Shown: positions 4,928 through 46,150, counted from the first letter of the stretch. The stretch is DNA of 64,000 nt from an uncultured beta proteobacterium (GCA_963708545.1 CAVPUD010000060.1:3844-67843), one strand, 5' to 3'. The notes: generated from the letters alone by a model not told the origin. Made by a program: numbers and translations.

Positions 4928-5164
4928 CCTAAATCCGGCAGTTGACCGCTGCATTTTTGTATGCAACTCTTTGATTTTTCGAATGATTTTTACGTTGCGA
5001 GACGCACCCATCGGGTCAGAGCGCTGCGCACCCGATCGCGCCGCCCTCGGGCACGCTGGCCGCGTTGCAAATCCTCGCCATGGCACCCGCCATGGCTGCG
5101 GTTTGCGCCTTGCCAGTGCACCCGATGACGACACGCTCGGGCGCGCTCAACTGCCGGATTTAGG
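4928..5164 (+). mobile_element. MITE copy 1 (237 bp)
   Basis: 18-bp TIR CCTAAATCCGGCAGTTGA / TCAACTGCCGGATTTAGG; flanks ATAAA / TTAAA (4 of 5 match); no transposase. Confidence 0.92.
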
Positions 5165-5177
5165 TTAAATTGCGCAG

Positions 5178-5327
5178 ATGAGCAGCGGATACACACCATT
5201 GCAGCCCGAAGAACGCATCACCCTCGCCTCACTGCACCAGCAAGGCCGCAGCCAACGCTTCATCGCCCAGCTACGCGGGCGCAGCCCCAGCACCATCCGC
5301 CGCGAACGGCAGCGCGGGCGCTGGTGA
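5178..5327 (+). pseudogene. IS30-family transposase N-terminal HTH remnant (49 aa)
   Basis: MSSGYTPLQPEERITLASLHQQGRSQRFIAQLRGRSPSTIRRERQRGRW*, matching the IS30 HTH pattern Y.QL..EER..I..L...G.S.R.IA..LGRSPSTI.RE. Confidence 0.85.
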
Positions 5328-5476
5328 GCGGCTTTGTCGCACTGCTCAAGGATTCGTCGCTGGCCTGTGCGATCGGCGTGGTCGAGCGCACCAGCGTGGG
5401 CAACCGCATCCAGTCGGCCGCATTCCAGCCCGTTGCTGTCGGCGCAGGCGCTGACACCTTGTTTCATGCGCTCTGA
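5324..5476 (+). pseudogene. C-terminal remnant of polar amino-acid ABC transporter permease
   Basis: VSGFVALLKDSSLACAIGVVERTSVGNRIQSAAFQP resembles the permease C-terminal LLKDSSL..IG..EL pattern; no N-terminus present. Confidence 0.7.
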
Positions 5477-6338
5477 ACGTGGCGGCCTGCTGGCCATGCT
5501 GGCCCTGCTGATCGTGACCGTGGTCTGGGGCACGACCTTTCCGGCGATGAAGCTGCTGTCGGCGCAGCTCGACGCGCTGCAGATCATTTGGTTGCGCTTT
5601 GCCATCGCTTCGCTCGTGCTCGCGCCGCTGTGGCACAGCATGCGCGGCCCCGAGCGCGCGTGGGGCGGCCTGCTCGGGGCCTTGCTGTTCGTCGCGTTTT
5701 GGCTGCAGATCGAGGGGCTCGCGCGCACCAGCAGCAACCGCAACGCCTTCGTCACGGGGCTCAACGTGCTCGGGGTGCCGCTTTTGGCCATGCTGGTGCT
5801 GCGGCGCCGCTATGGCTGGCGTCTGTGGGCAGCCTGCGCCCTGGCCGGCGCGGGCATGGCACTGATGTTCCACGAGGACGCGCCCTGGAATTTCGGCGAC
5901 ACGCTCACGCTGGTGAGCGCGCTGTTTTATGCGCTCTACGTCCTCGCGCTCGAAGAGTGCGCGCGCCACACGGCGGCGCAGCCGCTGCGCGCCACGCGCA
6001 TGGCCACGGTGCAGGCGGGCGTGATGTGCGCTGCCGCGACGGCGTTGCTGCTCGCGCGCGGCAGCGGCCTGGGCTGGCTTGCGTCGCTCGGGCGCCTCGA
6101 CGCCACAAGCTGGGGTGCGCTGCTGTATCTCGGGCTTGTCGCCAGCGTGCTCGTCGTGATTTTGCAAGCCTGGGGGCAGCAGCGCGTCGATGCCGTGCGC
6201 AGTGCCATCGTGTACGGGCTCGAGCCGGTGTTCGCCGCGCTCGCCGCGTGGGCGCTGCTGGGCGAGCGGCTTGGCTGGACGGGCAGCGCGGGCGCGGCGC
6301 TGATCGTGGCTGCGCTGGTGCTGAGCCAGTTACCCTAA
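5466..6338 (+). CDS. DMT/EamA family transporter
   Basis: VVWGTTFPAMK, GDTLTL, AIVYGLEPVFAA; stop codon lies inside MITE copy 2. Confidence 0.92.
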   Translation: MRSERGGLLAMLALLIVTVVWGTTFPAMKLLSAQLDALQIIWLRFAIASLVLAPLWHSMRGPERAWGGLLGALLFVAFWLQIEGLARTSSNRNAFVTGLNVLGVPLLAMLVLRRRYGWRLWAACALAGAGMALMFHEDAPWNFGDTLTLVSALFYALYVLALEECARHTAAQPLRATRMATVQAGVMCAAATALLLARGSGLGWLASLGRLDATSWGALLYLGLVASVLVVILQAWGQQRVDAVRSAIVYGLEPVFAALAAWALLGERLGWTGSAGAALIVAALVLSQLP

Positions 6339-6570
6339 ATCCGGCAGTTGAGCGCGCCCGAGCGTGTCGTCATCGGGTGCACTGGCAAGGCGCAAACCGC
6401 AGCCATGGCGGGTGCCATGGCGAGGATTTGCAACGCGGCCAGCGTGCCCGAGGGCGGCGCGATCGGGTGCGCAGTGCTCTGACCCGATGGGGGCTTTTCG
6501 CAGAGTGAAAAATCATCGGAAAAATCAAAGAGTTGCATACAAAATGCAGCGGTCAATTGCCGGATTTAGG
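6334..6570 (-). mobile_element. MITE copy 2 (237 bp, reverse orientation)
   Basis: Same TIRs (one mismatch); perfect 5-bp TSD GTTAC at 6329-6333 and 6571-6575. Confidence 0.95.
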
Positions 6571-6603
6571 GTTACAGTCGCCGCCCTCGCGCAAGTCCTG
6601 ATC

Positions 6604-8658
6604 TCAGGGCGCTTGTTGCACAGCGGCCGGCAGCGGCACTTCGGCCGCCTGCCTTGGCTTGCCGATGGGCGCGGTGGCCTTGCCGCTGCGCACGGCGGCG
6701 ATGTCTTCCTCGCTCGGGTACTCGCCCAACAACCAGTAGTCGAACACGCGCCGCGCGATCGGCGCGGCTGCACTTGCGCCCCAGCCGGCGTTTTCGACGA
6801 TCACCGCGAGCGCGATGCGCGGCGCCTCGGCCGGGGCGAAGGCAATGTAGAGCGCATGGTCGCGCTGGCGCTCTTGCAGTTTGCTGGCGTTGTATTTTTC
6901 CTTCTGCCCTATGGTCACGGCCTGTGCCGTGCCGGTCTTGCCTGCCGAGAGGTAGCGCGCGCCGGCAAAGGCCCGCGCGGCGGTGCCCTGCTGCGTCACG
7001 CCGACCATGGCGCGATGCACCACCTCGACGTTTTCAGGCTTGAAGCCCAGGTTCACGCCGGGCTCGCTCGGCAGCGCCTGGCGCGCGTGCGTGACCGGAT
7101 CGAGCGTGGCCAGCCCCAAGTGCGGGCGGTGGCGCACCCCGCCGTTGGCCAGCGTGGCCGTGGCCTGGGCGAGCTGCAAGATGGTGAAGTTGTTGTAACC
7201 CTGGCCTATGCCCAGCGAAATGGTTTCGCCCGCGTACCAGACCTTTTGTTCGGGGCGGCGGTAGTTGGCGCGCTTCCAGGCCTGGCTGGGCAGCACGCCG
7301 CGCACTTCGCCGGCGAGGTCTATGCCGGTGATCTGCCCGAAACCCAGCGGCGCCATGAAGTCGTGGATGGCGTCCACGCCCAGGTCATTCGCCAAGGCGT
7401 AGTAATACACATTGCTCGACTGCACGATGCTGCGGTGCATATCCACCACGCCCAGGCCGCCGTCTTCGTGGCTGCGGAAGGTGTGGCCGCCGAAGGTCCA
7501 TGTGCCGCGATCGACGATGGTGCCGCGCGGCGTGCGTTTGCCCAGCTCGAGCGCGGCCAGCGCCATGAAGGGCTTGTAGGTCGAGCCCGGCGGGTAGGTG
7601 CCGCGCAGGGCGCGGTTGAGCAGGGGTTTGTCGAGCGATTCGTTGAGCGCCGTCCAGCTCTCCACGTCTATGCCTTCGACGAACAGGTTCGGGTCGAACG
7701 TGGGTTTGGAGACGAGCGCGAGCACTTCGCCCGTGCGCGGGTCCAAGGCCACGAGCGCGCCGCGCCGCTCGCCGAACAGGTCTTCGACCATGCGTTGCAG
7801 CTTGACGTCGAGCGCGAGCACCACGTTGCTGCCGGGCGTGGCCGGGCGGCTCGCGAGCTTGCGCACGGCCCGTCCGCCTGCGGACGTTTCCATGAGCTCC
7901 ACGCCCGTGGTGCCGTGCAGCAGTGCTTCGTAGCTTTGTTCTATGCCCAGCTTGCCTATGTATTCGGTGCCGCGGTAGTTGGCCTCATCGTCCGAGTCCT
8001 GGATGCGTTCCTTTTCCGCCTGGTTGATGCGGCCTATGTAGCCTATGGCGTGGCTCGCGGTGTCGCCCTGGGGGTAATTGCGAAAGAGCCGCGCCTTCAC
8101 GTCCACGCCCGGAAAGCGAAAGCGCTGCGCCGCAAAGCGCGCCACTTCTTCGTCCGTGAGGCGCGTGCGTATGGGCAGCGACTCGAAGTTGCGCGATTCT
8201 TCGAGCAGGCGCTCGAAGCGCCGGCGCTCGCGCGGCTGGATATCGACCACCTGCGCGAGCGCGTCCAGCGTGGCTTCGAGCTCGGGCACTTTGGAGGGCG
8301 TGATCTCCAGCGTGTACGCGGCGTAGCTGCTCGCGAGCACCACGCCGTTGCGGTCCAGGATCAAACCGCGGCTGGGCACGATGGGCACCACCGCCGTGCG
8401 GTTGCTCTCGGCCTGCGCGGCCAGGTCTTCGTGGCGTACCACCTGCAGATACACCAGCCGCGCGAGCACCAGGCCAAACGCCAGCAGCACCACGGCACCC
8501 ATGACGAGCACGCGCAGGCGAAAGTCCGCCGTGTCGGCCTGCACGTTGCGCAGCTCCGCGATGGATGTGATCTCTTCGCCCGGCCATGGCGCATCGCTGC
8601 CCTGCAAGCGCTTGCGCAGGCGCAGTGCGGTCTGGCGAAGGCGCGCAAACCTCGGCAT
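6604..8658 (-). CDS. mrdA: Penicillin-binding protein 2
   Basis: PGSTYK (SxxK), SSN, AGKTGTAQ motifs; follows mreD; the 970-aa track ORF is over-extended; start set at ATG 2 nt after the mreD stop. Confidence 0.95.
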   Translation of the reverse strand: MPRFARLRQTALRLRKRLQGSDAPWPGEEITSIAELRNVQADTADFRLRVLVMGAVVLLAFGLVLARLVYLQVVRHEDLAAQAESNRTAVVPIVPSRGLILDRNGVVLASSYAAYTLEITPSKVPELEATLDALAQVVDIQPRERRRFERLLEESRNFESLPIRTRLTDEEVARFAAQRFRFPGVDVKARLFRNYPQGDTASHAIGYIGRINQAEKERIQDSDDEANYRGTEYIGKLGIEQSYEALLHGTTGVELMETSAGGRAVRKLASRPATPGSNVVLALDVKLQRMVEDLFGERRGALVALDPRTGEVLALVSKPTFDPNLFVEGIDVESWTALNESLDKPLLNRALRGTYPPGSTYKPFMALAALELGKRTPRGTIVDRGTWTFGGHTFRSHEDGGLGVVDMHRSIVQSSNVYYYALANDLGVDAIHDFMAPLGFGQITGIDLAGEVRGVLPSQAWKRANYRRPEQKVWYAGETISLGIGQGYNNFTILQLAQATATLANGGVRHRPHLGLATLDPVTHARQALPSEPGVNLGFKPENVEVVHRAMVGVTQQGTAARAFAGARYLSAGKTGTAQAVTIGQKEKYNASKLQERQRDHALYIAFAPAEAPRIALAVIVENAGWGASAAAPIARRVFDYWLLGEYPSEEDIAAVRSGKATAPIGKPRQAAEVPLPAAVQQAP

Positions 8659-8660
8659 GG

Positions 8661-9179
8661 TCACAAGGGGCGGTTTTCGTCGCGCTCGAGCGGGCGGCGC
8701 TGGGGGGCCAGCAAGACCCAGCTCGCCAGCGGCCACAGCAGGGTTTCGAGCAAGGGCGCAACGACACTGGCCAGCCCTGGGAACACACCACCCCAGGCGA
8801 GCCCCACGGCCAGCGCTATGGCGTGCGCGAGCAGCAGCAGCGGCAGCACGTGCAAGGCCTGCGCCCAGGAACTGAACCACGCGAGCCGCCGCTGCAGCGC
8901 CGCCGCGCCGCAGGCGAGCACGGTGTAGGCGAGCGCATGCTGGCCGAGCAGGCTGGAGGCTTGCACGTCCATGCACAGGCCCAGCACGAAGGCCGTGCCC
9001 ATGCCCACGCGCTGCGGCTGGTGCACGCACCAGAAAGCGAGCAGCAGCATGAGGAAGTCCGGCAGCCAGACCACGCGCCCGAGCGGCAGCATGTTCAGCG
9101 CCAGGCCGGCGACCAGGCTCGCGGCGATGAAAAAAGGGTTGGCTGGCAGCAGCAGCGGCTGCCCGCGCGGCATGATCAT
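8661..9179 (-). CDS. mreD: Rod shape-determining protein MreD
   Basis: Hydrophobic, PDFLMLLLAFWCVHQP, GLCMDV; position in mreBCD operon. Confidence 0.93.
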   Translation of the reverse strand: MIMPRGQPLLLPANPFFIAASLVAGLALNMLPLGRVVWLPDFLMLLLAFWCVHQPQRVGMGTAFVLGLCMDVQASSLLGQHALAYTVLACGAAALQRRLAWFSSWAQALHVLPLLLLAHAIALAVGLAWGGVFPGLASVVAPLLETLLWPLASWVLLAPQRRPLERDENRPL

Positions 9180-10126
9180 GGTGCGCGCCCTCCCTTGCCT
9201 TCGCTCTTGGCCTGCTTCTTTGCGGCAGGCGCTTCGTGGGCCGGGGCCGGCGGTGGCTCCGGCAGTCGCGCGGCGAGCGGCTGCAGCACGAGCACGTGGC
9301 GTGCGCCCTGCACCTGGGCGAGCGGCGCGCAGATGACGCGCGCAAAGGTCGAGTCGGCACGGCGCTCCACGCGCAGCACCCGGGCCACGGGCTGGCCCGG
9401 CGGATAGACGCCATCGACGCCACTGGTGCTGAGCAGGTCGCCTTCGCGGATGTCGGCGCTGCTGGGCACGAAGCGCAGTTCCAGACTGCCAGTGCGGCCT
9501 GCCACAGGATCACCAAAGACTACGCCGCGCACTCCGGTGCGCATGTTCTGTACGGGCGTCGCCTGCTCGCGGTCGATCAGCAGCGTGACTTCGCTCACGA
9601 GCGGCAGCACGCGCGTCACCTGGCCGAGTACGCCCGCGGCATCGATGACGGGCGATCCCGCCACCATGCCCGCAGCCTGGCCTCGGTCTATGACCACGCG
9701 GCGGCTGAACGGGTCGGCCGCGTCGTAGATCACCTCTGCCGCCTGGGAGGGGGTGGCGATGCGCGGCTTCAATTGCAGCAGCTGGCGCAGCTGCTGGTTT
9801 TCCTGCAGCAGCAAGTCCGCCTGGTGCGCGCGCTGCGCGAGCTGCAGCATCTGGGCCCGCGCGGCCCGGGCGTCGGCCTCGGCCTGGTGCAGCGACCGGA
9901 AGTAGTCCAGCCCCTGGTGTGCGAACTCCACGGGCTGGCGCATCAGCCATTGCGCGGGGTAGAGCACTGTGGCCACGGCCTGGCGCAGCGGGTCCACGAG
10001 ATGAAAGCGCGCGTCGGCCACCATCAGGAACAGCGCCAACGCAGCGTACAGCGCCAGTTGCGACAGCGGCGACGGCCCCTGCTTGAAGAGCGAGGGCGCA
10101 CTGCGCTCCAAGGTTGCGGGCGGCAT
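9176..10126 (-). CDS. mreC: Rod shape-determining protein MreC
   Basis: LLQENQQLRQLL coiled coil, GDLLSTSGVDGVYPPG. Confidence 0.95.
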   Translation of the reverse strand: MPPATLERSAPSLFKQGPSPLSQLALYAALALFLMVADARFHLVDPLRQAVATVLYPAQWLMRQPVEFAHQGLDYFRSLHQAEADARAARAQMLQLAQRAHQADLLLQENQQLRQLLQLKPRIATPSQAAEVIYDAADPFSRRVVIDRGQAAGMVAGSPVIDAAGVLGQVTRVLPLVSEVTLLIDREQATPVQNMRTGVRGVVFGDPVAGRTGSLELRFVPSSADIREGDLLSTSGVDGVYPPGQPVARVLRVERRADSTFARVICAPLAQVQGARHVLVLQPLAARLPEPPPAPAHEAPAAKKQAKSEGKGGRAP

Positions 10127-10253
10127 GGGGCGGTTTCAGAAGGAGGCGATCAGAGCGCAGCCGACGGCAAGGTGTGATGCTGGTATCCGTGCAGGGGCCA
10201 CAAGCGCGCGCCTTGGCATCCGCAGGGCATGATCGCGCGGCGCCCCAAACGCT

Positions 10254-11297
<1,044 letters not shown>

Positions 11298-11600
11298 TCA
11301 AAATCCTCTGGGGCACGGCATGCACGTGCGGCCTGCCAGTGCCGGGTTGGTGGGGTCAAAAGTTTTCACGACTTACGCAAATCGGGGTGAGGCAAGGCGT
11401 TCGACCCATGGCAAAACACCTCGTTGCATCCTTGTTTGCGTAAGTCCAGGTTTTGCTTTTTTCGCACAATGACCGGCAGGAGGGAGGGTATTGCGGCAAA
11501 GCCGGGATAATACCCGATCGCCCCCGCGCGGGCCCTCTTGCGGCCCCGTGCGCAGCACAGTTTTACATCTGTGGCAGCACCCACTTTCACCCTTGTTTTT

Positions 11601-11900
11601 ATGGCACTGACACCCCAGGACATCGAGCGCATCGCGCACCTGGCGCGGCTCGCGCTCAGCCCCGCCGAAGCCGGGCGCATGCACGCGCAGCTCAACGGCT
11701 TTTTTGCCATCGTCGAGCAGATGCGCGCCGTCGATACCAGCGGCCTCACGCCGCTGCCACACCCCGTGGCCACCGTGCAGCCCGTGGCCCTGCGGCTGCG
11801 CGAGGACGTGGCGAGCGAGCCGAATCAGCGTGAGCGCAACCAGCGCAGTGCCCCGGCCGTGGAGCGCGGCCTGTACCTCGTGCCCAAAGTCATCGAGTGA
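11601..11900 (+). CDS. gatC: Asp/Glu-tRNA amidotransferase subunit C
   Basis: [17 protein letters not shown]...LYLVPKVIE. Confidence 0.95.
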
Positions 11901-11908
11901 GGCCGCGC

Positions 11909-13405
11909 ATGACATCGACCCCTGCATTGCACGAGCTGGGCGTGGCCGAACTCGCCGCCGAATTGCGCGCGCGCCGCATGTCCGCCGTCGAAGCGGCGCA
12001 GCATTTTCTGGCGCGCGCGCACACCCACCAGCACCTGGGCGCGTACCTTGCGCTGAATGAGGAAGCGACGCTCGCGCAGGCGCGCGCCGCCGATGCACGC
12101 CTGCAGGCCGGCACGGGCGGCCCGCTCGAAGGCGTGCCCATTGCGCACAAGGACATCTTCGTCACCCAGGACTTCCCGAGCACTGCGGGCTCGAAGATGC
12201 TCGCGGGCTACCAGTCGCCGTTCGACGCGACCGTGGTGCAGCGCCTGGCCGCGGCCGGCTGCGTGACGCTGGGCAAGCTCAATTGCGACGAATTCGCGAT
12301 GGGCTCGGCGAACGAGAATTCGGCCATCGCGCCGCTGGGCTTCGCCGCGCCCGCGCCGGTGCGCAACCCCTGGGACACCACGCGCGTGCCCGGCGGTTCC
12401 TCGGGCGGCAGCGCCGTGGCCGTGGCCGCGCGCCTGGTGCCGGCCGCGACGGGCACAGACACCGGCGGCTCGATCCGCCAGCCCGCCTCGTTTTGCGGCG
12501 TTACGGGCATCAAGCCCACCTACGGGCGCGCCTCGCGCTACGGCATGATCGCCTTTGCCTCCAGCCTCGACCAAGCCGGCCCCATGGCGCGCTCGGCGCA
12601 GGACTGCGCGCTGCTGCTGTCGGCCCTGTGCGGCCCCGACCCTGACCGTGATTCGACGAGCCTGGACCTGCCCGCCGAAGATTTCAGCGTGCGGCTGGGC
12701 GACAGTCTCGATGGGCTGCGTATCGGCATCCCCGCCGAGTTCTTCGGCGCAGGGCTGGCCGACGACGTGCGCGCCGCCGTCGAAGCCGCGCTCGAAGAGT
12801 ACGAAAAACTCGGCGCCACGCTCGTGCCCATCCGCTTGCCGCGCACCGAGCTGTCCATCCCGGTGTATTACATCATCGCGCCCGCCGAGGCGAGCTCCAA
12901 TCTGAGCCGCTACGACGGCGTCAAGTTCGGCCACCGCGCACGCGACTACACCGACCTCGAAGACATGTACAAAAAAACCCGCGCCGAAGGCTTCGGCGAC
13001 GAGGTCAAGCGCCGCATCATGATAGGCACCTACGTGCTGAGCCACGGCTACTACGACGCCTACTATCTGCAGGCGCAAAAAATCCGCCGCATGATCGCCG
13101 ACGACTTCCAGCAGGCCTTCACGCAATGCGACCTGATCGCCGGCCCTGTCGCGCCGAGCGTGGCCTGGCCCCTGGGCGCGCACGGCAGCGACCCGCTCGC
13201 CGACTACCTGGCCGACATCTACACCCTGCCGGCCTCGCTCGCGGGCCTGCCCGGCATGAGCGTGCCCGCAGGCTTTGGCGCGCACGGTATGCCCGTGGGG
13301 CTGCAGCTCATCGGCAATTATTTCCAGGAAGCCCGGCTACTGAACGCGGCGCACCGCTTGCAGCAGGTGACGGATTTTCACTTGCGCATGCCCGGGGGAT
13401 TGTGA
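11909..13405 (+). CDS. gatA: Asp/Glu-tRNA amidotransferase subunit A
   Basis: Amidase signature [21 protein letters not shown]. Confidence 0.97.
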
Positions 13406-13406
13406 G

Positions 13407-14858: not shown

Positions 14859-14901
14859 CGTGGGCGAGCGCAGCGGCGGTCTGATCGGCCCGCCCCGCCC
14901 A

Positions 14902-16319: not shown

Positions 16320-16329
16320 GGAAAAACCC

Positions 16330-17133: not shown

Positions 17134-17191
17134 TGGCTTTGCGCCTACAGACGCCTTTGCCCACGCATTTTGCTTGCCCAGGCTTTTGCTC

Positions 17192-19144: not shown

Positions 19145-19182
19145 GGCCTTTTTCCTCGCCCATTTCCCCTACGGAACCCGCC

Positions 19183-19821: not shown

Positions 19822-19845
19822 GCTACGCGCCGAGGATTTTGGATA

Positions 19846-29944: not shown

Positions 29945-30058
29945 GGTTTTTTCCGTGCGAGGATTATGAAAGCAGCGCTTCAAAATGAAAAGCACTCCAG
30001 CGCGCTCTGACAAGGTTTTTTTGCAGGCACAGGCGTCCGGAGTGGGTGCGGAGCAGCC

Positions 30059-33019: not shown

Positions 33020-33127
33020 GGGAAGTCCTCTCGTCCTTTGGGGAACTGGCGTGAAAGTAGGGGTGAGCGTGGGGCAGGCCCACGGCGACGCAGGGCGTCG
33101 TGGCGAGTGCCGCTGCAGGAGACTATA

Positions 33128-33175
33128 GCACTAGATTTAGTGTTTCTGATTCATAAAAAACACTACATATAGCGT
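33128..33175. promoter_or_regulatory. Tandem NrdR boxes upstream of nrdA
   Basis: gcaCTAGATTTAGtgt (33128-33143) and acaCTACATATAGcgt (33160-33175) match acaCwAtATaTwGtgt, 32 bp apart. Confidence 0.88.
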
Positions 33176-33235
33176 TTATACGCTGTATTGCTTTTGGCAT
33201 GCGCCGGGCGCGGCACGCTGTTGGCGAGCTGCGCC

Positions 33236-35360: not shown

Positions 35361-35370
35361 ATGGGATGGT

Positions 35371-37101: not shown

Positions 37102-37121
37102 CAGCGCGGTGGGGCGGCGTC

Positions 37122-37343
37122 TCACGCAGTGCGCGGCAGGTGTGCCGCCGAGCAATAAAACTTTCCGTCCTGCACCAGGGCTTCGGAGCGCGGCAGGTGC
37201 ACGCCGCAGTGCGCGCAGGCCACCATGCTTTCAGGGGCCGCGCGCCGAGGCGGGACAGACTTGGAGCGGGAGGCAGGCGCCTGTTGGCTGCGCCACCAGG
37301 CCGCGCCCACAGCCACGACGATGAGCACGAGCAGGTACTTCAT
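37122..37343 (-). CDS. PP0621-family small protein
   Basis: TM helix then MVACAHCGVHLPRSEAL...YCSAAH. Confidence 0.88.
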   Translation of the reverse strand: MKYLLVLIVVAVGAAWWRSQQAPASRSKSVPPRRAAPESMVACAHCGVHLPRSEALVQDGKFYCSAAHLPRTA

Positions 37344-37493
37344 CCTAAATCCGGCAGTTGAGCGCGCCCAAGCGTGTCGTCATCGGGTGCGCAGCGCTCT
37401 GACCCGATGGGTGCGTCTCGCAGAGTGAAAAATCATTCAAAGAATCAAAGCGTTGCATACAAAAAAATACAGCGGTCAACTGCCGGATTTAGG
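37344..37493 (-). mobile_element. MITE copy 3 (150 bp, internally deleted)
   Basis: Same TIRs; 90-bp deletion between ATCGGGTGC direct repeats; flanks TTCAT / TTTAT. Confidence 0.92.
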
Positions 37494-37494
37494 T

Positions 37495-38292
37495 TTATAC
37501 GCTGCGGTGTAAAACGACTTCGAGCACGAAGCGCGAGCCCACGTAAGCCAGCAGCAGCAGCGCGGCGCCCGCATACAGCACACGCACGGCGCTGCGCCCG
37601 CGCCAGCCAAAGCGTGCGCGCCCGAGCAGCAGCACGGCAAAGGTGAGCCAGGACAGCAGCGAGAACACCGTCTTGTGGTCCCAGCGCCAGGCGCGCCCGT
37701 ACAACTGCTCGCCAAACAGCATGCCCGCGAGCAGCGTTGCCGTGAGCAGCGCGAAGCCCGCCGCGACGAAGCGAAACATCAGGCGCTCGAGCGTGAGCAG
37801 CGGCATGCCACTGTCTGGGTCTTGGCCCTGGCGGATGCGGCGCTCCGCGCGCGTCATGAGCCAGGCGTGCACCACTGCGGCGGCAAACAGGCCATAGCAG
37901 GCGATGCCCAGCGCCAGGTGCAGCGGCAGCCAGGCGGATGCCGTGGCATGCAGTGGCTGGCCCGGAAACAGCTGTGCGAGCAGCAAGCTCAGCGCCGCCA
38001 AGAGCGCCAGCATCCAGCGCGCGCGCAGTTGCGGGAACAGCTGGCGCTCGATGGCGTACACCGTGAGCGCAAGCCAGGCCGTCATCGACAGCGCCGGCGC
38101 AAAGCCAAAGCGCGGCGCCTCGCCCCACAGCCCCCAGCCGAGCGCCGCCGCGTGCAGCAGCCAGGCCGGGCGCAAGGCGCGCCGCGTCCAGCCCTCGCGC
38201 AGCCGTGCGCCCGCGAGCGCCGGAGCGGCGTAGGCCAGCGCCGCCGCGAGCGACAGCAGCCAGCCGATCGGAGAGGCACTCGGTAAAATCAT
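37495..38292 (-). CDS. CcsA/YpjD-like inner membrane protein (cytochrome c assembly family)
   Basis: PLHLALGIACYGLF, WRWDHKTVFS; divergent from ffh. Confidence 0.88.
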   Translation of the reverse strand: MILPSASPIGWLLSLAAALAYAAPALAGARLREGWTRRALRPAWLLHAAALGWGLWGEAPRFGFAPALSMTAWLALTVYAIERQLFPQLRARWMLALLAALSLLLAQLFPGQPLHATASAWLPLHLALGIACYGLFAAAVVHAWLMTRAERRIRQGQDPDSGMPLLTLERLMFRFVAAGFALLTATLLAGMLFGEQLYGRAWRWDHKTVFSLLSWLTFAVLLLGRARFGWRGRSAVRVLYAGAALLLLAYVGSRFVLEVVLHRSV

Positions 38293-38419
38293 GGCCCGCA
38301 GTTTATCCCGCGGCGATCGTCGAACCCTCCCGCGTGCAGGGGCCGACCGCCTTTGCAGACGGCCTTGCACCATGCATGCCGCTTTGTGACGCCCAGCCAC
38401 CCCTCAGCCCTTTACTCTT

Positions 38420-39796
38420 ATGGCCTCCGCCCTCACTGACAAACTCTCGCGCCTCGTCAAAGAAATGCGCGGCCAGGCCCGCATCACCGAATCCAACGTG
38501 CAGGACATGCTGCGCGAAGTGCGCATGGCCCTGCTCGAAGCCGACGTGGCCCTGCCCGTGGTGCGCGACTTCATTGCGCGCGTCAAGGAAAAGGCGCTGG
38601 GGCAGGAGGTGCTGGGCAGCCTCAAGCCCGGCCAGGCGCTGGTGGGCATCGTGCACCGCGAGCTCGCCGCCACCATGGGCGAGGGCGTGTCCGACCTGAA
38701 CCTGGCCACGCAGCCGCCTGCCGTGATCCTCATGGCCGGCCTGCAAGGCGCGGGCAAGACGACGACCACGGCCAAAATCGCCAAGCACCTGATCGAAAAA
38801 CGCAAGAAAAAAGTGCTCACCGTCTCGGGCGACGTGTACCGGCCTGCAGCCATAGAGCAGCTCAAGACCGTGACGCGCCAGGCCGGGGCCGAGTGGTTTC
38901 CGAGTTCGCCCGAGCAAAAGCCGCTCGAGATCGCGCGCGCCGCGCTCGACTACGCCAAAAAGCACTACTTCGACGTGCTGCTGGTCGACACCGCGGGGCG
39001 CCTGGCGATCGACGAGGCGCTGATGCAGGAGATCAAGGAACTGCACGCGGCGCTGCAGCCGGTCGAAACCTTGTTCGTCGTCGATGCCATGCAGGGGCAG
39101 GACGCCATCAACACCGCGCGCGCCTTCAAGGAGGCGCTGCCGCTCACGGGCATCGTGCTCACCAAACTCGACGGCGACGCGCGCGGCGGTGCGGCGCTGT
39201 CGGTGCGCCAGATCACGGGCGCGCCGATCAAGTTCGCGGGCGTCTCGGAAAAAATCGACGGCCTCGAAGTGTTCGACGCCGAACGCCACGCGGGCCGCGT
39301 GCTGGGCATGGGCGACATCGTCGCGCTGGTCGAGCAGGTCACGGCCAACGTCGATCTGGATGCCGCGCAAAAACTCGCCGCCAAGGTCAAGAGCGGCAAT
39401 GGGTTCGACCTCAACGACTTCCTCGCGCAGATTCAGCAGATGAAGCAGATGGGCGGGCTCTCCAGCCTCATGGACAAGCTGCCCACGCAACTGAGCGCGC
39501 AGGCGGGCAAGGTCGATATGGGCAAGGTCGAAAAAGACATACGCCGCAAGGAAGGCATCATCCAGAGCATGACGCCGCTCGAGCGCCGCAAGCCCGACGT
39601 CATCAAGGCCTCACGCAAAAAGCGCATCGCCCAGGGCGCGGGCGTGCAGGTGCAGGAGGTCAACCGCCTGCTCAAGGAATTTGAGCAGATGCAGGAAATG
39701 ATGAAAAAAATGAAGGGCGGCGGCCTGATGAAGATGATCAAGAAAATGGGCGGTATGAAAGGCCTGGGCGGCGGCATGCCCAAGATGCCGTTCTGA
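38420..39796 (+). CDS. ffh: Signal recognition particle protein
   Basis: GLQGAGKTTT, DTAGR, TKLDGDARGG, Met-rich C-terminus. Confidence 0.98.
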   Translation: MASALTDKLSRLVKEMRGQARITESNVQDMLREVRMALLEADVALPVVRDFIARVKEKALGQEVLGSLKPGQALVGIVHRELAATMGEGVSDLNLATQPPAVILMAGLQGAGKTTTTAKIAKHLIEKRKKKVLTVSGDVYRPAAIEQLKTVTRQAGAEWFPSSPEQKPLEIARAALDYAKKHYFDVLLVDTAGRLAIDEALMQEIKELHAALQPVETLFVVDAMQGQDAINTARAFKEALPLTGIVLTKLDGDARGGAALSVRQITGAPIKFAGVSEKIDGLEVFDAERHAGRVLGMGDIVALVEQVTANVDLDAAQKLAAKVKSGNGFDLNDFLAQIQQMKQMGGLSSLMDKLPTQLSAQAGKVDMGKVEKDIRRKEGIIQSMTPLERRKPDVIKASRKKRIAQGAGVQVQEVNRLLKEFEQMQEMMKKMKGGGLMKMIKKMGGMKGLGGGMPKMPF

Positions 39797-39817
39797 CGGC
39801 TTCTGAAATTTCAAGCC

Positions 39818-39871
39818 ATTTTGGCCTCTAGCGCACATCCAGAAAGCGCTTTCAGCTATTAATACAGCAGC
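39818..39871 (+). repeat. 54-bp dispersed motif copy between convergent ffh and lysE-like genes
   Basis: attttggcc-tctagcgcacatccag-aaagcgctttc-a-gctat taataca gcagc. Confidence 0.88.
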
Positions 39872-39889
39872 AAAAGCCGGGTGGAACAC

Positions 39890-40510
39890 TCAGCGCGTGA
39901 GCGGCAAGGCCAGCCCCATGGCCGCAAACAGGCCGCCGCAGACGCGGTTGAAGCGCCGGCCCATGCGCTCGAGCGCCGGGCGGATCAGGTGCGCAAGCCG
40001 CGCGAGCAAAAACTCCACGCAGCACTCGGTGAGCATGAAGGTGCCGGCCATCACCACGAACTGCAGCCACAGGCTGCGCGCCGGGTCGATGAACTGGGGC
40101 AGGAAGGCGCCGTAAAAAAGCAGCGCCTTGGGGTTGGACACGGCGGCGAACAGCCCTTGGCGAAACAGCTGTGCGCGGCGCGGGGGGCGCAGGAGGTGTG
40201 CCTCGTCCGCGGCCTGCAACTGCAGCGGCGGCGCGCGCCACAGTTGAACCCCTAGCCACACGAGATAAGCCCCGCCCGCCCACTTGAGCACCGTGAGGGC
40301 GTGCGACGAGGCCTGCAGCAGCGCGCCTATGCCCAGCATGGACAGGGCGATCAGCGCGACGAAACCGAGCGCGCCGCCGGCGATCGTGAACAGCGTGCGC
40401 CGGTGCCCATGCAGGGCGCCGTGCGTGAGCGCAAGCAGGCTGTTGGGGCCGGGCGTGAGCGACAGGCCCACGGCGGCAAGCAGATAGATCCACCAGGTAT
40501 GCCAACTCAT
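39890..40510 (-). CDS. LysE/RhtB family translocator
   Basis: SLTPGPN, LKWAGGAYLVWLG, NPKALLF. Confidence 0.92.
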   Translation of the reverse strand: MSWHTWWIYLLAAVGLSLTPGPNSLLALTHGALHGHRRTLFTIAGGALGFVALIALSMLGIGALLQASSHALTVLKWAGGAYLVWLGVQLWRAPPLQLQAADEAHLLRPPRRAQLFRQGLFAAVSNPKALLFYGAFLPQFIDPARSLWLQFVVMAGTFMLTECCVEFLLARLAHLIRPALERMGRRFNRVCGGLFAAMGLALPLTR

Positions 40511-40646
40511 AGCAAATGGAATGCGGTCGCTGCAAAGCAAAACCCCGAGTGTGCCGCAGGAGGGGCGGCATCGGGGCGTGCGGGGCGTGCGGGCCGGCAC
40601 AATCCGTACCTTCTGGGCATTTCCCCCACTCCCGACCGCCCCTGAC

Positions 40647-41081
40647 ATGGCCCGATTCGAAGCGCGCTCCTTCCTTTTTTACATGCTGGCGGCCCTGGCG
40701 CTGCCGGGGCTGTCGTACCGCGCTTACGGTTGGCGTGGCGTGGCCATCGCCGCGGCCGCCGTCGTGATGTGGCTGCTGCTGCACTTCACGCGCCTCATGA
40801 CCGTGTTGCGGCGCGCGGCAGAGCGCCCCGTGGGCTACGTGGACAGCGCCGTGATGCTGCATGCGCGCCTGCGCCCGGGCCTGGCGCTGCTCGACGTGCT
40901 CGCGCTCGCGCGTGCGCTCGGCGCCAGGCAATCCGCCGACGGCGCGGAGCCCGAGGTCTTTCGCTGGACGGATGCGGCGGGCGCGTACGTCGAAGCGCAT
41001 TTCCGTGCGGGCCGGCTCGTGCAGTGGCAGCTCGTGCGCGCGCCCGAGTCTGCAGTGCATGAGGCCGGCGCCGTAAAATGA
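40647..41081 (+). CDS. Conserved hypothetical membrane protein
   Basis: Hydrophobic N-terminus, PVGYVDSAVMLHARLRPG, FRWTD. Confidence 0.75.
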   Translation: MARFEARSFLFYMLAALALPGLSYRAYGWRGVAIAAAAVVMWLLLHFTRLMTVLRRAAERPVGYVDSAVMLHARLRPGLALLDVLALARALGARQSADGAEPEVFRWTDAAGAYVEAHFRAGRLVQWQLVRAPESAVHEAGAVK

Positions 41082-41143
41082 AATTTTGCCCAAGCAGCCA
41101 CGCCTGCTTGGTTTCTCTTTACTGACACACCAAAGGAGGTTCC

Positions 41144-42082
41144 ATGAGCCCCGTAGTTCCCTCGATGGCCGACCGTGACGGCAAAATCTGGATGGACGGC
41201 CAGATGGTCGATTGGCGCGACGCCAAAGTCCACGTACTGACGCACACGCTGCACTACGGCTGCGGTGCCTTCGAAGGGGTGCGGGCCTACCACACCGTGA
41301 ATGGCACGGCGATTTTCCGCTTACAAGAACACACCGAGCGCCTGTTCAATAGCGCCAAAATCTTGCGCATGAAGATTCCCTTCAGCCAGGAGCAGGTCAA
41401 CGAGGCGCAGCGTGCCGTGGTGCGCGAAAACAAGCTCGACGCTTGTTACCTGCGCCCGCTGGTGTGGATAGGCGACAAAAAGCTCGGCGTCTCGCCCAAG
41501 GGCAACACCATCCACGTCATGGTTGCGGCCTGGGCCTGGGGTGCCTACCTCGGTGAAGACGGCATCACCAAAGGCATACGCGTCAAGACCAGCAGCTACA
41601 CGCGCCACCACGTCAACATCACCATGACGCAGGCCAAGTCGGTGAGCAATTACACCAACTCCATCCTCGCCAACATGGAGGCCACGGATGACGGCTACGA
41701 CGAGGCGCTGCTGCTCGACGCAGCGGGCTTCGTCTCCGAAGGCTCGGGCGAGAACGTGTTCATCGTGAAGAACGGTGTGGTCTATACGCCCGACCTCTCG
41801 GCCGGCTCGCTCAACGGCGTCACGCGCAACACCGTGCTGCACATCTGCAAGGACCTTGGTATCGACGTGGTGCAAAAACGCATCACGCGTGACGAGGTGT
41901 ATATCTCGGATGAGGCCTTCTTTTCGGGCACTGCGGCCGAGATCACGCCGATCCGCGAGCTCGACCGCATCGAAATCGGCAGCGGCCAGCGCGGCCCGGT
42001 CACCGAGAATATCCAGAATGCGTTCTTCGACATCGTGAACGGACGCAACCCCAAATACGCCCACTGGCTGACCAAGGTGTGA
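41144..42082 (+). CDS. ilvE: Branched-chain amino acid aminotransferase
   Basis: LHYGCGAFEG, SEGSGEN, LNGVTR, SGTAAEITP. Confidence 0.97.
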   Translation: MSPVVPSMADRDGKIWMDGQMVDWRDAKVHVLTHTLHYGCGAFEGVRAYHTVNGTAIFRLQEHTERLFNSAKILRMKIPFSQEQVNEAQRAVVRENKLDACYLRPLVWIGDKKLGVSPKGNTIHVMVAAWAWGAYLGEDGITKGIRVKTSSYTRHHVNITMTQAKSVSNYTNSILANMEATDDGYDEALLLDAAGFVSEGSGENVFIVKNGVVYTPDLSAGSLNGVTRNTVLHICKDLGIDVVQKRITRDEVYISDEAFFSGTAAEITPIRELDRIEIGSGQRGPVTENIQNAFFDIVNGRNPKYAHWLTKV

Positions 42083-42084
42083 GC

Positions 42085-42291
42085 ATGTCGCAAGCCGTCG
42101 TCGAATTGCAGGCCAAAGACCTGAGCGCCCAAGGCGAGGTGTATTGCCCCCACCCCAAGGCGGGCATGCAGCTGTGGAGCGGCCACCCGCGCGTGTACCT
42201 CGACGTGGCGCACACGGGCGAGGCCAAGTGCCCTTATTGCGGCACGGTGTACCGCCTCAAGGCGGGCGAGAAAGTCGCGCACGGGCATTGA
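42085..42291 (+). CDS. Zinc-finger (zf-CHCC) protein
   Basis: YCP...W..HPRVYL...CPYCG. Confidence 0.9.
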   Translation: MSQAVVELQAKDLSAQGEVYCPHPKAGMQLWSGHPRVYLDVAHTGEAKCPYCGTVYRLKAGEKVAHGH

Positions 42292-42359
42292 GCCCGTTGC
42301 GCCTTTGCACTGCCCAGGCCGTAGCCGTATCACTCACTCCCCTACTGCCCTGACATTGG

Positions 42360-43688
42360 ATGGTTTTTTTTCGCTCAACTTTGCCGGGAGCAGTGCAGCA
42401 GCGTGTTTTGGACTTGGCCGCATTTTTGGTGCTTGCGCCTGCGCTGTGGCTGCCTTCGGGCTATTCCATCGGTGCGATCTTGTTGGTGATCCTGGGTCTG
42501 TGGCGCTGGCCGGCAGTGCTGCGCGGTCGGATCGCTCCGAATGCGCCCCTGCGGGCCTGGGCGCTGGCGGTTCTGGCCATGGGACTGGTGTGGTCCATGT
42601 ACCTCATGGAGGGCGGCCGGCTCATGACCAACACTTTGGGGCTGGATCGCAGCAGCAAATACTTTCTGGTGCTGCTGGCGCTGCCAGCCGTGTGGGCGCA
42701 GCGGCCGGCGGGCAGTGCCTTGCGCTGGGGCTGCTGGGTGGGCGCAACGGGCGCTGGCTTGCTCGCCGGCTGGCAGGTGTTGGTGCAGCACCTCGACCGC
42801 GCCGAGGGCCACACCAACGCCATACAGTTCGGCAATCTGGCCCTGTTGCTCGCGCTGTGGAGCAGTATCTGGGCCGTGCAGGCAAGCCGCCTGCACGAAC
42901 GCCTGCTTGGCAGCCTAGCTGCAGTGCTGGGCCTTGCGGCCAGCGTGCTCTCGGGCAGCCGGGGCGGGTGGGTGACGCTGCCCGTGCTGCTGCTGGTGCT
43001 CGTATGGTTCGCCCGCCCGTCAGCGAAGGGCACCAGGGGCCACCGGGGGTTGCGCGCGCTGGGGGCGGCGCTGCTTGCTTGCCTGTTGCTGGCGAGCCTA
43101 CCTCCTGTGCAGCAGCGTGCGCACGAGGCTGCGCAAGAACTGCTGCAGCAGCCCGAGCCCGAAAAGTCCAACACGGCAACCGGTTCCCGGCTCGCTTTCT
43201 GGATGCATGCATGGCGGCTGGGCATGGCGCATCCTTGGCTGGGCGCGGGCCAACTGGGCTATGAGCAAAGCCAGCTTGCGGCCGTCGCGCGCCAGGAGAT
43301 GCCTTCGATGTCCGTGCACTTCAACCATGCGCATAACGAATGGCTGGACATGTTCGCCAAGCGCGGCCTGCTTGGAGTCACCGCTCTGGCGCTGTTCTAC
43401 GCCGTGCCCGGCCTCCTGTGTTGGCGCCGGTTGCGCCGCACGGGGCGCGAACGTCTTGAAAATGCCCATGCTGCAGCCCATGGGTCCGCCATCGACGGCG
43501 AGCGCCATGCCGCCGCCCTGTGTGGCCTGGTCACGGTGCTCGGCTACCTGGGCTTTGGCATGACGCAGGTCATGTTTGCCCACAACAACGGCAACCTGAT
43601 GTACCTGCTGCCCATCACTTTGTGGCTGGCCGTCTGCTGGCCCGTTGCCGGCGCGCCTCGCGCCTTTCGGACTTCCATGCCACGATGA
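42360..43688 (+). CDS. O-antigen ligase (WaaL/Wzy_C) family protein
   Basis: Multiple TMs, SGSRGGW, GSRLAFW, HAHNEWL. Confidence 0.9.
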   Translation: MVFFRSTLPGAVQQRVLDLAAFLVLAPALWLPSGYSIGAILLVILGLWRWPAVLRGRIAPNAPLRAWALAVLAMGLVWSMYLMEGGRLMTNTLGLDRSSKYFLVLLALPAVWAQRPAGSALRWGCWVGATGAGLLAGWQVLVQHLDRAEGHTNAIQFGNLALLLALWSSIWAVQASRLHERLLGSLAAVLGLAASVLSGSRGGWVTLPVLLLVLVWFARPSAKGTRGHRGLRALGAALLACLLLASLPPVQQRAHEAAQELLQQPEPEKSNTATGSRLAFWMHAWRLGMAHPWLGAGQLGYEQSQLAAVARQEMPSMSVHFNHAHNEWLDMFAKRGLLGVTALALFYAVPGLLCWRRLRRTGRERLENAHAAAHGSAIDGERHAAALCGLVTVLGYLGFGMTQVMFAHNNGNLMYLLPITLWLAVCWPVAGAPRAFRTSMPR

Positions 43689-44824
43689 AACACTCCCTGC
43701 CCAGCGATTTCCCCGCAGCGTCCCGCCCGTTGCGCGTGCTGCACTTCGTCTCGGGCGGTTTTTCGGGGGCGACGCAGGTGGCCATAGACCTGTGCGGCGA
43801 GTACCCGGGCCAGGAAACGCTGCTCGTGCTGCGCCGGCGCGCGTCCATAGACCCGACCGAACGTGTGGCAGCGCTGCGCGCCAAAGGGCTGCAGGTCGAG
43901 GTGGTGCCGCGCTGGGCGCACATCGTCACCATTTTGGCGCTGGCGCGCCTGTGCCGCCAGTGGCAGCCGGACGTGCTCGTGGCGCATGGTTTCAGCGAGC
44001 ACCTGTGGGGCCGTTACGCGGGCTTGCTCGCCGGCGTGCCTCAGCTCATCCACGTGGAGCACAACGTGCGCGAGCGCTACCGCCTGGGGCGGCTGCGCCA
44101 GTCGCTGTGGCTGGCGCAGCGCACCGCCTGCATCGTGGGCGTTTCGCAGGCCGTGCGCGATGAACTGGTGCGCCTGGGCCACCCAGCAGAGCGCTGCGTC
44201 GCAATCCTCAACGGCATCGACCTGAACCGCTTTCCGCCCGGCCTGCCATGGGCGCAGCGCGAGGACGCGATCGTCATGCCGGCGCGCTTTGCGCAGCAAA
44301 AAGACCACACCACCTTGATCCGCGCCACCGCGCTGCTGGCACAAAAGGGCCTGCGTCCCACGGTGTACCTGGCCGGCGAGGGCAAGGCGAGCTGGCGCAG
44401 CAAGGCGCAGGCCCTCGCGCGCGCGCTGGGGGTGGATGCGCAGGTGCGCTTTCTGGGCCATGTGGCCGACTTGCCTGCGCTGCTGGCGCGGGTCAAGCTG
44501 TGCGTGCTCTCCACCCATTACGAGGGCTTGGGGCTGGGTTTGATCGAGGGCATGGCATCGGGCTGCTGCGGCATAGGCTCGGACGTGGAGGGCGTGCGCG
44601 AAGTGCTCACGCACGGCGAAACAGGCTTTCTCGTGCCGCATGCCGACGCGCAGGCGCTGGCGCAGACGCTGTACGCAGCGCTGCGTGACAACGAGGGCAC
44701 GGCGCGCATCGCCGCCGCCGGCCAGGCCCACGCGCGCGCCACGTTCGATCGCCAGCGCATGCGCCAGCAGTACCTGGACCTGTTCATTCGCGTGGGCAAA
44801 GGGCAGGGCGCGCCGGCGGCTTGA
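43685..44824 (+). CDS. Glycosyltransferase family 4
   Basis: PARFAQQKDH, EGLGLGLIEGMASG GT-B motif. Confidence 0.92.
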   Translation: MKHSLPSDFPAASRPLRVLHFVSGGFSGATQVAIDLCGEYPGQETLLVLRRRASIDPTERVAALRAKGLQVEVVPRWAHIVTILALARLCRQWQPDVLVAHGFSEHLWGRYAGLLAGVPQLIHVEHNVRERYRLGRLRQSLWLAQRTACIVGVSQAVRDELVRLGHPAERCVAILNGIDLNRFPPGLPWAQREDAIVMPARFAQQKDHTTLIRATALLAQKGLRPTVYLAGEGKASWRSKAQALARALGVDAQVRFLGHVADLPALLARVKLCVLSTHYEGLGLGLIEGMASGCCGIGSDVEGVREVLTHGETGFLVPHADAQALAQTLYAALRDNEGTARIAAAGQAHARATFDRQRMRQQYLDLFIRVGKGQGAPAA

Positions 44825-44839
44825 CTCTGCGCGCCCCGC

Positions 44840-45814
44840 TCAGGTACCCGTGGTGGCCCGCTGCCAGACGCTGCCTGGCGCGGCGCCGCCGTGGCCTTGC
44901 AGCAGCTTGGCAAAGTGCCGCCGCTCGCCGCCGCGCAGCTTGATCAAGGGGGCAGGATGCGGCTCTGCGGGCACCAGGCACAGCCGCGGGTAGAGCAAAT
45001 ACCACTTCCACCACACGGCCTGCTGGTAGAAAAACGCCGTGTCCTCGGCACGCAGCAAAGCCAGCCGAAAGCCGTTGGGGCGGCGCAGCACCTGTTGCGC
45101 TGCGACGTGGATGAGCAAATAGGCCGGGTCGGTGATGCCCTGCAGCACCTGGCTGCCCCCGGCCTGCGCCTGCAAGGCCTGCAAATAGCGCTGCTCGCCC
45201 TCTTCGATCAGCGCGCGGTGGAATTCCTGCTGCCACGCGGTCATGAAGGGCGCCCCCGCTGGTGCACCGAAGGCCCAGCTTTCGATGATGGGGTAGCGCA
45301 AGTCCGTGGTGTAGCCGTCGATGTAAAAGCCGACGAATTCCGCGCCCTGGGTCTGGCGCAGGCCATCGAGCCAGGCGAGCGACTGCGTGAGCAAAGTGCT
45401 CGCGTCCAGCCAATAGCCGCCGAATTTGTGCACCACATAAAGCCGCAGCCAGTCCGCCTGCTTGGCGGCAGGCAGCGCCGCAAACGCGGGCGGCAAGTCC
45501 CCCGCGGCAACCACGTCGCCCAGCGTGTGCGCGTGGATCACCTGCACGTCCAGGCCTGGGCAATGGCGCCGCCAGTTCGCTATGCACTGCTGCACCACGG
45601 GGTCGAGCGTGGCGCAGTGCCAGTAGGTCCAGATGCGAGCCGGGATGGGTGTCCGGGTGTTTGCAGTGGCGGCGGGCGCCACGGGCTGTGCCGGCGTGCC
45701 CGTAAACACCTGGACACGCGGCGTTCCGGGATAGGAAAGAGTGTCGCGTGGCTTGCGCGAACTCAGCCATTGGTAGGCTAGGCGAAAAACGCCCGGCGGT
45801 AGTTGCAGGTGCAT
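44840..45814 (-). CDS. Capsular polysaccharide synthesis / DXD sugar-binding glycosyltransferase (GT32-like)
   Basis: IPARIWTYW, ADWLRLYVVHKFGGYWLDAS; start uncertain (45814, 45841 or 45910). Confidence 0.85.
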   Translation of the reverse strand: MHLQLPPGVFRLAYQWLSSRKPRDTLSYPGTPRVQVFTGTPAQPVAPAATANTRTPIPARIWTYWHCATLDPVVQQCIANWRRHCPGLDVQVIHAHTLGDVVAAGDLPPAFAALPAAKQADWLRLYVVHKFGGYWLDASTLLTQSLAWLDGLRQTQGAEFVGFYIDGYTTDLRYPIIESWAFGAPAGAPFMTAWQQEFHRALIEEGEQRYLQALQAQAGGSQVLQGITDPAYLLIHVAAQQVLRRPNGFRLALLRAEDTAFFYQQAVWWKWYLLYPRLCLVPAEPHPAPLIKLRGGERRHFAKLLQGHGGAAPGSVWQRATTGT

Positions 45815-45913
45815 GACCCCAGATTGTCCATGAGGCAGCATGAAAGAGCGGTGGGATACGGGCGGACAGAGTGGCGCGGCGCATGCTGCAAACCCGGCTG
45901 GGCCTAGCATGAT

Positions 45914-46150
45914 CCTAAATCCGGCAGTTGACCGCTACATTTTGTATGCAACTCTTTGATTCTTCGAATGATTTTTCACTCTGCGAGACTCACCCATCGG
46001 GTCAGAGCGCTGCGCGCCCGATCGCGCCGCCCTCGGGCACGCAGGCCGCGTTGCAAATCCTCGCCATGGCGCCCGCCATGGCTGCGGTTTGCGCCTTGCC
46101 AGTGCACCCGATGACGACACGCTCGGGCGCGCTCAACTGCCGGATTTAGG
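45914..46150 (+). mobile_element. MITE copy 4 (237 bp)
   Basis: Perfect TIRs; perfect TSD ATGAT at 45909-45913 and 46151-46155. Confidence 0.95.

Follow-up and report, generated by a model that had tools for sequence, protein, structure and literature searches.

The 64,000-nt window analysed here (C60:3844-67843, from an uncultured beta proteobacterium) contains four copies of a MITE (miniature inverted-repeat transposable element), a non-coding repeat bounded by 18-bp terminal inverted repeats (TIRs) and flanked by 5-bp target-site duplications (TSDs). Copy 1 occupies 4928..5164 on the + strand, its AT-rich end facing low coordinates; its TIRs span 4928-4945 and 5147-5164, and its duplication is ATAAA (4923-4927) / TTAAA (5165-5169). 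Copy 2 occupies 6334..6570 (-) between two GTTAC pentamers (6329-6333, 6571-6575); copy 3, a 150-bp short form, occupies 37344..37493 (-) between TTCAT (37339-37343) and TTTAT (37494-37498); and copy 4 occupies 45914..46150 (+) between two ATGAT pentamers (45909-45913, 46151-46155). Copies 1, 2 and 4 are full length at 237 bp. When the window was searched for the 18-bp end CCTAAATCCGGCAGTTGA with up to three mismatches, eight matches were obtained, forming four inward-facing pairs, as against none in 100 dinucleotide-preserving shuffles of the same sequence. The initial annotation had these positions, the two orientations, the TIR and the flanks exactly right; its description of a four-copy 237-bp family stands for three of the window copies, the remaining one being a deletion derivative of 150 bp, and the family as a whole comprises 42 paired copies. 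From the evidence below, this family is very probably mobilised in trans by an IS1380-like transposase and lands at a near-palindromic pentamer, D-T-S>W-A-H, its excess at gene boundaries arising, in our view, from target preference together with purifying selection.

All four copies had been described as landing on gene boundaries, which is correct for copies 2, 3 and 4 and holds statistically across the genome, but not for copy 1: this copy is intergenic, following the stop codon of a TauE-family gene (3972-4835) by 93 nt and lying upstream of an EamA gene. Copy 2 interrupts the final codons of the EamA transporter gene (5334-6338), nine native ones being replaced, and the gene now ends at a TAA internal to the TIR (6336-6338); a penicillin-binding-protein gene (6604-9516, -) ends 34 nt from the other end of this copy. 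In relatives (G003:C23:223991-224301) the EamA stop lies 3 nt from the convergent penicillin-binding-protein stop, so no intergenic space existed there. Copy 3 has parted an ATGA overlap of stop and start codons. One of its ends adjoins the ATG of a 73-aa open reading frame (ORF; 37122-37343, -), the abutting TIR reading ..CCGGAUUUAGG directly followed by AUG, whilst the stop codon of a CcsA-like gene (37495-38400, -) lies within the other TSD copy; because relatives read TTCAT, it is this second TSD copy that has changed, its gene strand going from TGA to TAA. At copy 4 a Caps_synth-like gene (44840-45910) has its ATG (45908-45910, -) 3 nt from the element, which lies upstream and therefore separates this start codon from its native upstream region, and an NMO gene (46321-47307, +) starts 170 nt from the other end of the element.

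Across the host assembly (2.98 Mb, 167 contigs, 91% complete, 66% G+C) most of the 42 paired copies measure exactly 237 bp, and they are accompanied by about six truncated copies and by one further weak end match with three mismatches, probably a chance hit. The large genome-wide expansion suspected from the window alone is thereby borne out. Unpaired TIRs on C37, C50 (two), C85, C86 and C141, considered as possible insertion sequence (IS) ends, all proved to belong to truncated MITEs. Family members range from 115 to 238 bp with a perfect 18-bp TIR, identical at both ends, and are too short to hold a transposase gene. The left third of the element is AT-rich (..CCGCTGCATTTTGTATGCAAC..GATTTTTCGAATGATTTTT..) and the right two-thirds form a GC-rich imperfect palindrome; a hairpin module of 57 nt (GGCCGCGTTGCAAATCCTCGCCATGGC..GCCATGGCTGCGGTTTGCGCCTTGCC) lies at 5058..5114 in copy 1. 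Folding of either strand as RNA gave -119 and -137 kcal/mol (z = -7.9 and -10.4 against shuffles), in agreement with the strong internal hairpins noted earlier, whilst Rfam returned no family at its gathering threshold and a permissive scan gave only a meaningless long-hairpin match.

Thirty-five full-length copies share a mean pairwise identity of 96.3% and diverge from their consensus by 2.2%. Variation per column is 4-7% in the AT-rich left third and 0.1-1.9% in the palindrome and termini, a contrast that suggests gene conversion, correction templated by the hairpin, or selection acting on the right part. Copy 3 lacks 87 bp between direct repeats GCACCCGAT, and a second type of short form lacks 90 bp between direct repeats CTCGGGC. 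We considered whether the short form might be ancestral and the 87-bp hairpin a later insertion, and rejected this on finding two short forms with different deletion end-points; as these end-points fall at different direct-repeat pairs, both of which are present in the full form, the short forms are deletions.

TSDs were compared over 41 copies and are 5 bp long, 17 being perfect and 19 carrying one mismatch. A symmetrised logo confines the target information to the pentamer itself, which reads D-T-S>W-A-H: position 1 is A > T > G with C almost absent, position 2 is T, position 3 is G or C in 78% and A or T in 22%, position 4 is A, and position 5 is T > A > C with G almost absent. The NTNAN target proposed in the initial annotation is thus refined, the preferred pentamers being ATGAT, TTGAA, GTGAC and CTGAG, and the bases around them have a G+C content of 55-70%. 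One copy (C59:26076-26312) is flanked by a 6-bp duplication, TTCCAA, which shows that the distance between the staggered cuts is not entirely rigid.

Empty sites were reconstructed from the host copies and searched in three genomes of the same genus (G001-G003). At the 21 loci tested, including all four in the window, an uninterrupted orthologous site with a single pentamer was found at the predicted place. The empty site of copy 1 reads GTAAA in G003; that of copy 2 was found in G003 and G001; that of copy 3 reads TTCAT in G003 and G002, the two G003 matches overlapping by exactly 5 bp where the query has its 150-bp gap; and that of copy 4 was found in G002. Sites with one pentamer establish true transposition with a 5-bp duplication and, together with the TIRs, the TSDs, the non-coding interior and the high copy number, identify the repeat as a MITE, as had been supposed. 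G003, at 92-94% nucleotide identity, holds only one full copy, 91% identical, plus fragments. Because the tested sites are empty in the relative, the copies diverge by about 2% and G003 is nearly without them, the burst of some 42 copies is lineage-specific and recent.

That the TNA core of the target reads TAA or TGA on one strand, a point made in the initial annotation, is true of any TNA by symmetry and is no evidence in itself; the coincidence with stop codons of actual genes is real. In the host genome, 13 of 41 copies have a called gene's stop codon as the central triplet of the TSD, against a background of 1.6-2.5% for all NTNAN/WTSAW sites (p = 1e-11) and 7-10% for those outside ORFs (p = 1e-4), the null model being an ORF caller based on third-codon-position G+C content (GC3) applied to the MITE-free genome at 85% coverage. 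RTGA stop/start overlaps were hit by four copies (C37:19437, C93:3361, C66:2796 and window copy 3), where 0.09% is expected, and the terminus of about 11 copies adjoins a putative start, an ATG or TTG in frame with a high-GC3 ORF. Tibeticola sediminis (G041) carries about 60 MITE copies, with a TGA stop in register at 30 of 53, and only 6 of 48 sites there lie between divergent promoters, a rarity that points to selection. We think that target preference and purifying selection together give the gene-boundary excess. The earlier proposal that the target steers insertions towards stop codons is one reading of this excess, filtering by selection being another.

Autonomous elements with the same ends exist in other genomes, among them members of the host's own family. 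An exact scan with the 18-mer, taking one genome per species, gave at least 118 loci; among the matches listed, the hosts are Acidobacteriota, Verrucomicrobiota, Alpha-, Beta- and Gammaproteobacteria and Geobacter, and most loci hold MITEs, 113-440 bp long, whose interiors are unrelated. A family of about 235 bp in Tibeticola is homologous to the MITE studied here, and a Nitrosospira and Nitrosovibrio family is so more distantly. At least four phyla have the terminus CCTAAATCCGGCAGTT in conserved form. At least 14 of the listed loci, in bacterial classes other than the host's, are elements of 1662-1696 bp that have the same 18-bp termini and encode one protein of 510-545 aa each, and a perfect 5-bp NTNAN TSD flanks 13 of 14 full-length autonomous copies. 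The L029 element, for instance, is 1696 bp long with the TSD GTGAA, and OY970201 holds five copies of 1662 bp; overall, the autonomous elements of other genomes measure 1630-1696 bp, with a single ORF and ends beginning CCTA.... Within the host's family the clade is present in 16 of 201 sampled genomes. The ends of L228 match the MITE terminus at 17/18 and 16/18 positions, the G186 element has the ends CCTAAATCCGGCAGTTGC and ..TTAC, and CTAAT is the TSD of L229 and of the element in G075. A copy on a Polaromonas plasmid is flanked by TTAAA.

The transposase of these elements (about 520 aa) has as its best NCBIfam match NF033539, the IS1380 profile (E = 2e-44, positions 8-418 of 419), and scores over the Pfam gathering threshold of PF13701. 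NF033539 is likewise the best profile match of nine out of nine aligned homologues (best E = 4.8e-53), and remote tblastn matches in PLSDB were to annotated IS1380-family transposases only, at 22-25% identity. An AlphaFold model (pLDDT 71.8, pTM 0.77) submitted to Foldseek retrieved Tn5 transposase at the top (E = 7e-10), followed by piggyBac (5e-6) and piggyBat (4e-4), and the core is accordingly modelled as DDE, RNase-H-like and of IS4/piggyBac type; searches of the PDB with the transposase by sequence and by profile found nothing. In metagenomes the clade is represented by more than 7,900 protein clusters, mostly labelled 'hypothetical protein' on contigs of about 1.7 kb. The partner works as IS1380-family elements do and in all probability branches deep within that family; an IS1380-like partner is what the initial annotation had surmised from the CCTA ends and 5-bp duplications.

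Several candidate partners closer to the host were rejected. A search of 25 relatives with the IS1380 profile revealed no full IS1380 transposase. Profile matches in the host at C24:26093-26422 (-), C115:633-930 (+) and on C165 are short N-terminal relics of a different IS1380-type transposase; those on C24 and C115 share an upstream end, CGCTAGCCCGGAYATTTCACCG, unlike the MITE terminus, and show that this genome has hosted IS1380-type elements of more than one lineage. In G003, partial matches to the left end (L016, L017) turned out to be truncated or variant MITEs beside ordinary genes. T. sediminis possesses one intact IS1380-like element (C7:76790-78446, equal to L220:791-2447). This IS has no matching duplication (TTGAA vs GCAAC), and its right end adjoins the terminus GCAACGCTGAACAAGTC of another MITE family; either it inserted into that other repeat or it was rearranged.

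The interior of the MITE has a different affinity from its ends. The central module of 55-57 nt recurs mid-element in other MITE-like families of related genomes whose termini are unrelated, for example in CTAG-bounded elements (L005-L007) and in TTAAGGCGACGCTGAA-bounded elements (L004 and L008), and it is found in L003, L010 and L012 as well, lying at about 1500-1560 in each of the L003-L008, L010 and L012 loci. Its flanks are conserved (GCGTTGCAAATCCTCGCC / GGCTGCGGTTTGCGCC) and changes in the inner stem are compensatory (CCATGGC, CGATACC, CCATAGC, CCGGGC); the module looks like a unit under its own constraint. Within the host genome, 36 of 39 module matches fall inside the MITE studied here. 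Since IS-type termini are combined with a module common to families having other ends, the MITE is a chimera with a borrowed interior. A second dispersed repeat, of about 83 bp with 12-bp inverted ends (GACTTACGCAAATCGGGGTTAGGCAAGGCGTTCGC.CCATGGCAAAACACC.CGCTGCATCCTT.TTTGCGTAAGTC), has 67 matches in the host genome and dozens in each of G001-G003, and two copies of the MITE, both outside the window, directly adjoin it (C46:~3412-3494 and C55:~37725-37805).

In the mechanism that we favour, a MITE with a 237-bp consensus and 18-bp TIRs would be supplied with transposase in trans by a distinct IS1380-like clade that has the same termini. By homology this would be a DDE enzyme of the Tn5/piggyBac structural type, which would bind the CCTAAATCCGGCAGTT ends and then excise the element. 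Insertion at the near-palindromic D-T-(G/C>A/T)-A-H with 5-bp staggered cuts would duplicate the pentamer. The commonest targets (ATGAT, TTGAA, GTGAC) hold a start codon as well as TGA, and an insertion that falls on a stop codon, or on an ATGA, GTGA or TTGA overlap, would therefore leave each neighbour its own copy of the signal with no coding sequence lost. In a compact genome of 66% G+C, boundary sites would account for a large part of the targets that can be tolerated and would be the safest landing places. The burst is recent and, the partner being missing from the assembly, either the copies are stranded by now or the assembly has missed the IS.

Several observations weigh against this reading. 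No transposase of the clade was found in the host assembly, a metagenome-assembled genome 91% complete and in 167 contigs, or in G001-G003. In T. sediminis the ends of the resident IS show 3-5 mismatches to the MITE copies of that genome, which makes cross-mobilisation there uncertain. The MITE and the sampled IS have only their terminal 16-18 bp in common; because there is no subterminal homology, a parent-offspring relation between them is read from the ends and the TSD alone. The L029 transposase reaches 151.8 bits against NF033539, for which the curated cut-off is 180, and the partner is called IS1380-like for this reason. As for the boundaries, the GC3-based gene caller behind the null model is crude and its start calls are unvalidated; in other, mostly lower-G+C genomes the stop-codon sites number 8 of 33 for MITEs and 2 of 12 for autonomous copies; and an excess measured in static genomes fits selection and active targeting alike.

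It is highly improbable that the copies are host palindromes akin to repetitive extragenic palindromic sequences or bacterial interspersed mosaic elements, or products of recombination: the interior is indeed a long palindrome with a hairpin module dispersed in related genomes, but exact boundaries, identical 18-bp TIRs and 5-bp direct duplications speak for an inserted element, the precise empty sites with one pentamer contradict a host origin, autonomous elements carry the same ends, and nearly all module matches of the host lie inside the MITE. More credible, though still unlikely in our view, is a transposase directed to gene ends by a feature beyond the pentamer, be it the structure of the DNA where coding gives way to non-coding sequence, or a coupling to replication, transcription or the termination of translation. 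Such targeting would account for the 3-5 fold excess over target-like sites outside ORFs, which is larger in T. sediminis, for insertion flanks whose G+C content is coding-like rather than intergenic, and for the orientation of the element relative to the gene whose stop is hit, that gene adjoining the AT-rich end in 31 of 40 cases pooled over host and T. sediminis. Yet there is no sequence information beyond the pentamer, autonomous copies reside on stop codons in 2 of 12 cases and have no orientation bias, and the rarity of divergent-promoter sites in T. sediminis is what purifying selection predicts. Orientation is linked to the target base as well: with the AT-rich end placed left, the central base is a purine in 33 of 39 host copies (33:6, p = 1e-5), and in T. 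sediminis G outnumbers C, being present in 29 of 42 copies. In T. sediminis the left neighbour gene points into the element 37:11 and the right neighbour is random (24:24), and the central-base bias of that genome is carried mostly by stop-codon sites. Selection on transcription direction was rejected as the cause, as in the host genome the purine bias of 33:6 exceeds the gene-direction bias of 21:8 and persists among antisense cases (6:2). The idea that the AT-rich end might act as a promoter was not upheld, a scan of 4800-6700 giving 0 sigma-70-like sites. One weak terminator-like hairpin is present at this end (4938-4952 followed by ATTTTTG), in a count not above that of shuffles, and it is a conjecture on our part that a terminator-like hairpin with its U-run might be selected at a sense-oriented AT-rich end.

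The TSD mismatches could be explained by a rival mechanism in which, in the manner of piggyBac, part or all of the 5-nt duplication of the donor is kept as 5' overhangs on the excised element. These would pair with the new target, and one of the two TSD copies would be donor-derived. Mismatched TSDs make up 59% of copies, where about 20% would be expected from 2.2% divergence, and the mismatches seldom fall on T2 and A4, the invariant positions (7 of 41 with T. sediminis included, vs 40% expected; p = 0.0015). Of ten outer-position mismatches polarised by empty sites, nine have the deviant base in contact with the terminus of the MITE (p = 0.011), the exception being C93, where it is distal. 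The sequence of a deviant copy is often that of one of the commonest TSDs (ATGAT, TTGAA, ATAAT). IS1380 transposases have moreover been used as the prokaryotic outgroup of piggyBac (PMC10813416), and our model matches the piggyBac fold. Against such carry-over, the TSDs of autonomous copies are perfect in 13 of 14 and vary in their centres within one genome, and Tn5, the better structural match, makes flush ends. Gene conversion among the 42 copies, spilling one base past the terminus, predicts the same mismatch pattern, fits the near-invariant termini and right part as well, and is an equal rival. Donor carry-over is a possibility that we hold to be doubtful, and slightly more doubtful still is the broader claim that the IS1380-like transposase carries donor nucleotides as piggyBac-like 5' overhangs, with the mismatch pattern, and perhaps the 33:6 purine link, as its footprints. 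If true, this would for the first time connect bacterial IS1380 with eukaryotic piggyBac by mechanism.

To our knowledge, a defined near-palindromic D-T-S-A-H target has not been described for the IS1380 family. The partner resembles that family (IS1380, IS1247, ISEcp1, ISPme1) in its 1.63-1.70 kb, one DDE gene, CCTA ends and 5-bp duplication, IS1247 being 1672 bp long with 5-bp direct repeats (PMC3281130), and differs in its transposase of about 520 aa, which at 22-25% identity to annotated members forms a separate, abundant and mostly unnamed clade. Amongst small elements, Correia (Neisseria), Chunjie, Nezha (cyanobacteria), RUP and ERIC are similarly short, non-coding and of high copy number with TIR and TSD, and they share strong RNA folding, internal-deletion variants and insertion near or into gene ends. 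Correia duplicates TA, and we know of none of the five reported with IS1380-type ends, a 5-bp NTNAN duplication and such a rate of stop-codon insertion. Chunjie, a Geobacter MITE with 21-bp TIRs and 9-bp direct repeats (PMC3184786), was ruled out as a relative on these lengths, which are 18 bp and 5 bp here. Eukaryotic piggyBac (TTAA) and the PIF/Harbinger or IS5-group elements (TNA/TAA) likewise duplicate a short AT-centred palindromic target and have CC(C)TA ends, piggyBac having a related transposase fold, and TNA-type targets overlap stop codons; the present family differs from piggyBac and Harbinger in its 5-bp duplication, its degenerate, mostly G/C centre and its bacterial host, and its transposase is structurally closer to Tn5. 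A literature search retrieved neither the CCTAAATCCGGCAGTTGA terminus nor an IS1380-derived MITE family. The kind of element is known, whilst the family, its conserved terminus, the D-T-S-A-H target and the fit to stop and start codons appear to be undescribed.

Taken together, this analysis ties a high-copy repeat of Comamonadaceae and Nitrosomonadaceae to an abundant, essentially unnamed IS1380-like clade, and offers a natural example of how a 5-bp RTGA duplication lets a transposon occupy stop codons and coupled gene pairs with both frames intact. For annotation, stop and start codons in such genomes can be supplied or duplicated by a repeat, and their assembly is affected too; for operon biology, 150-237 nt of strongly folding RNA are placed between coupled genes. 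The IS1380 family includes ISEcp1, the mobiliser of blaCTX-M genes, and the mismatch and orientation patterns described here provide a cheap, testable handle on the transposition chemistry of this family.

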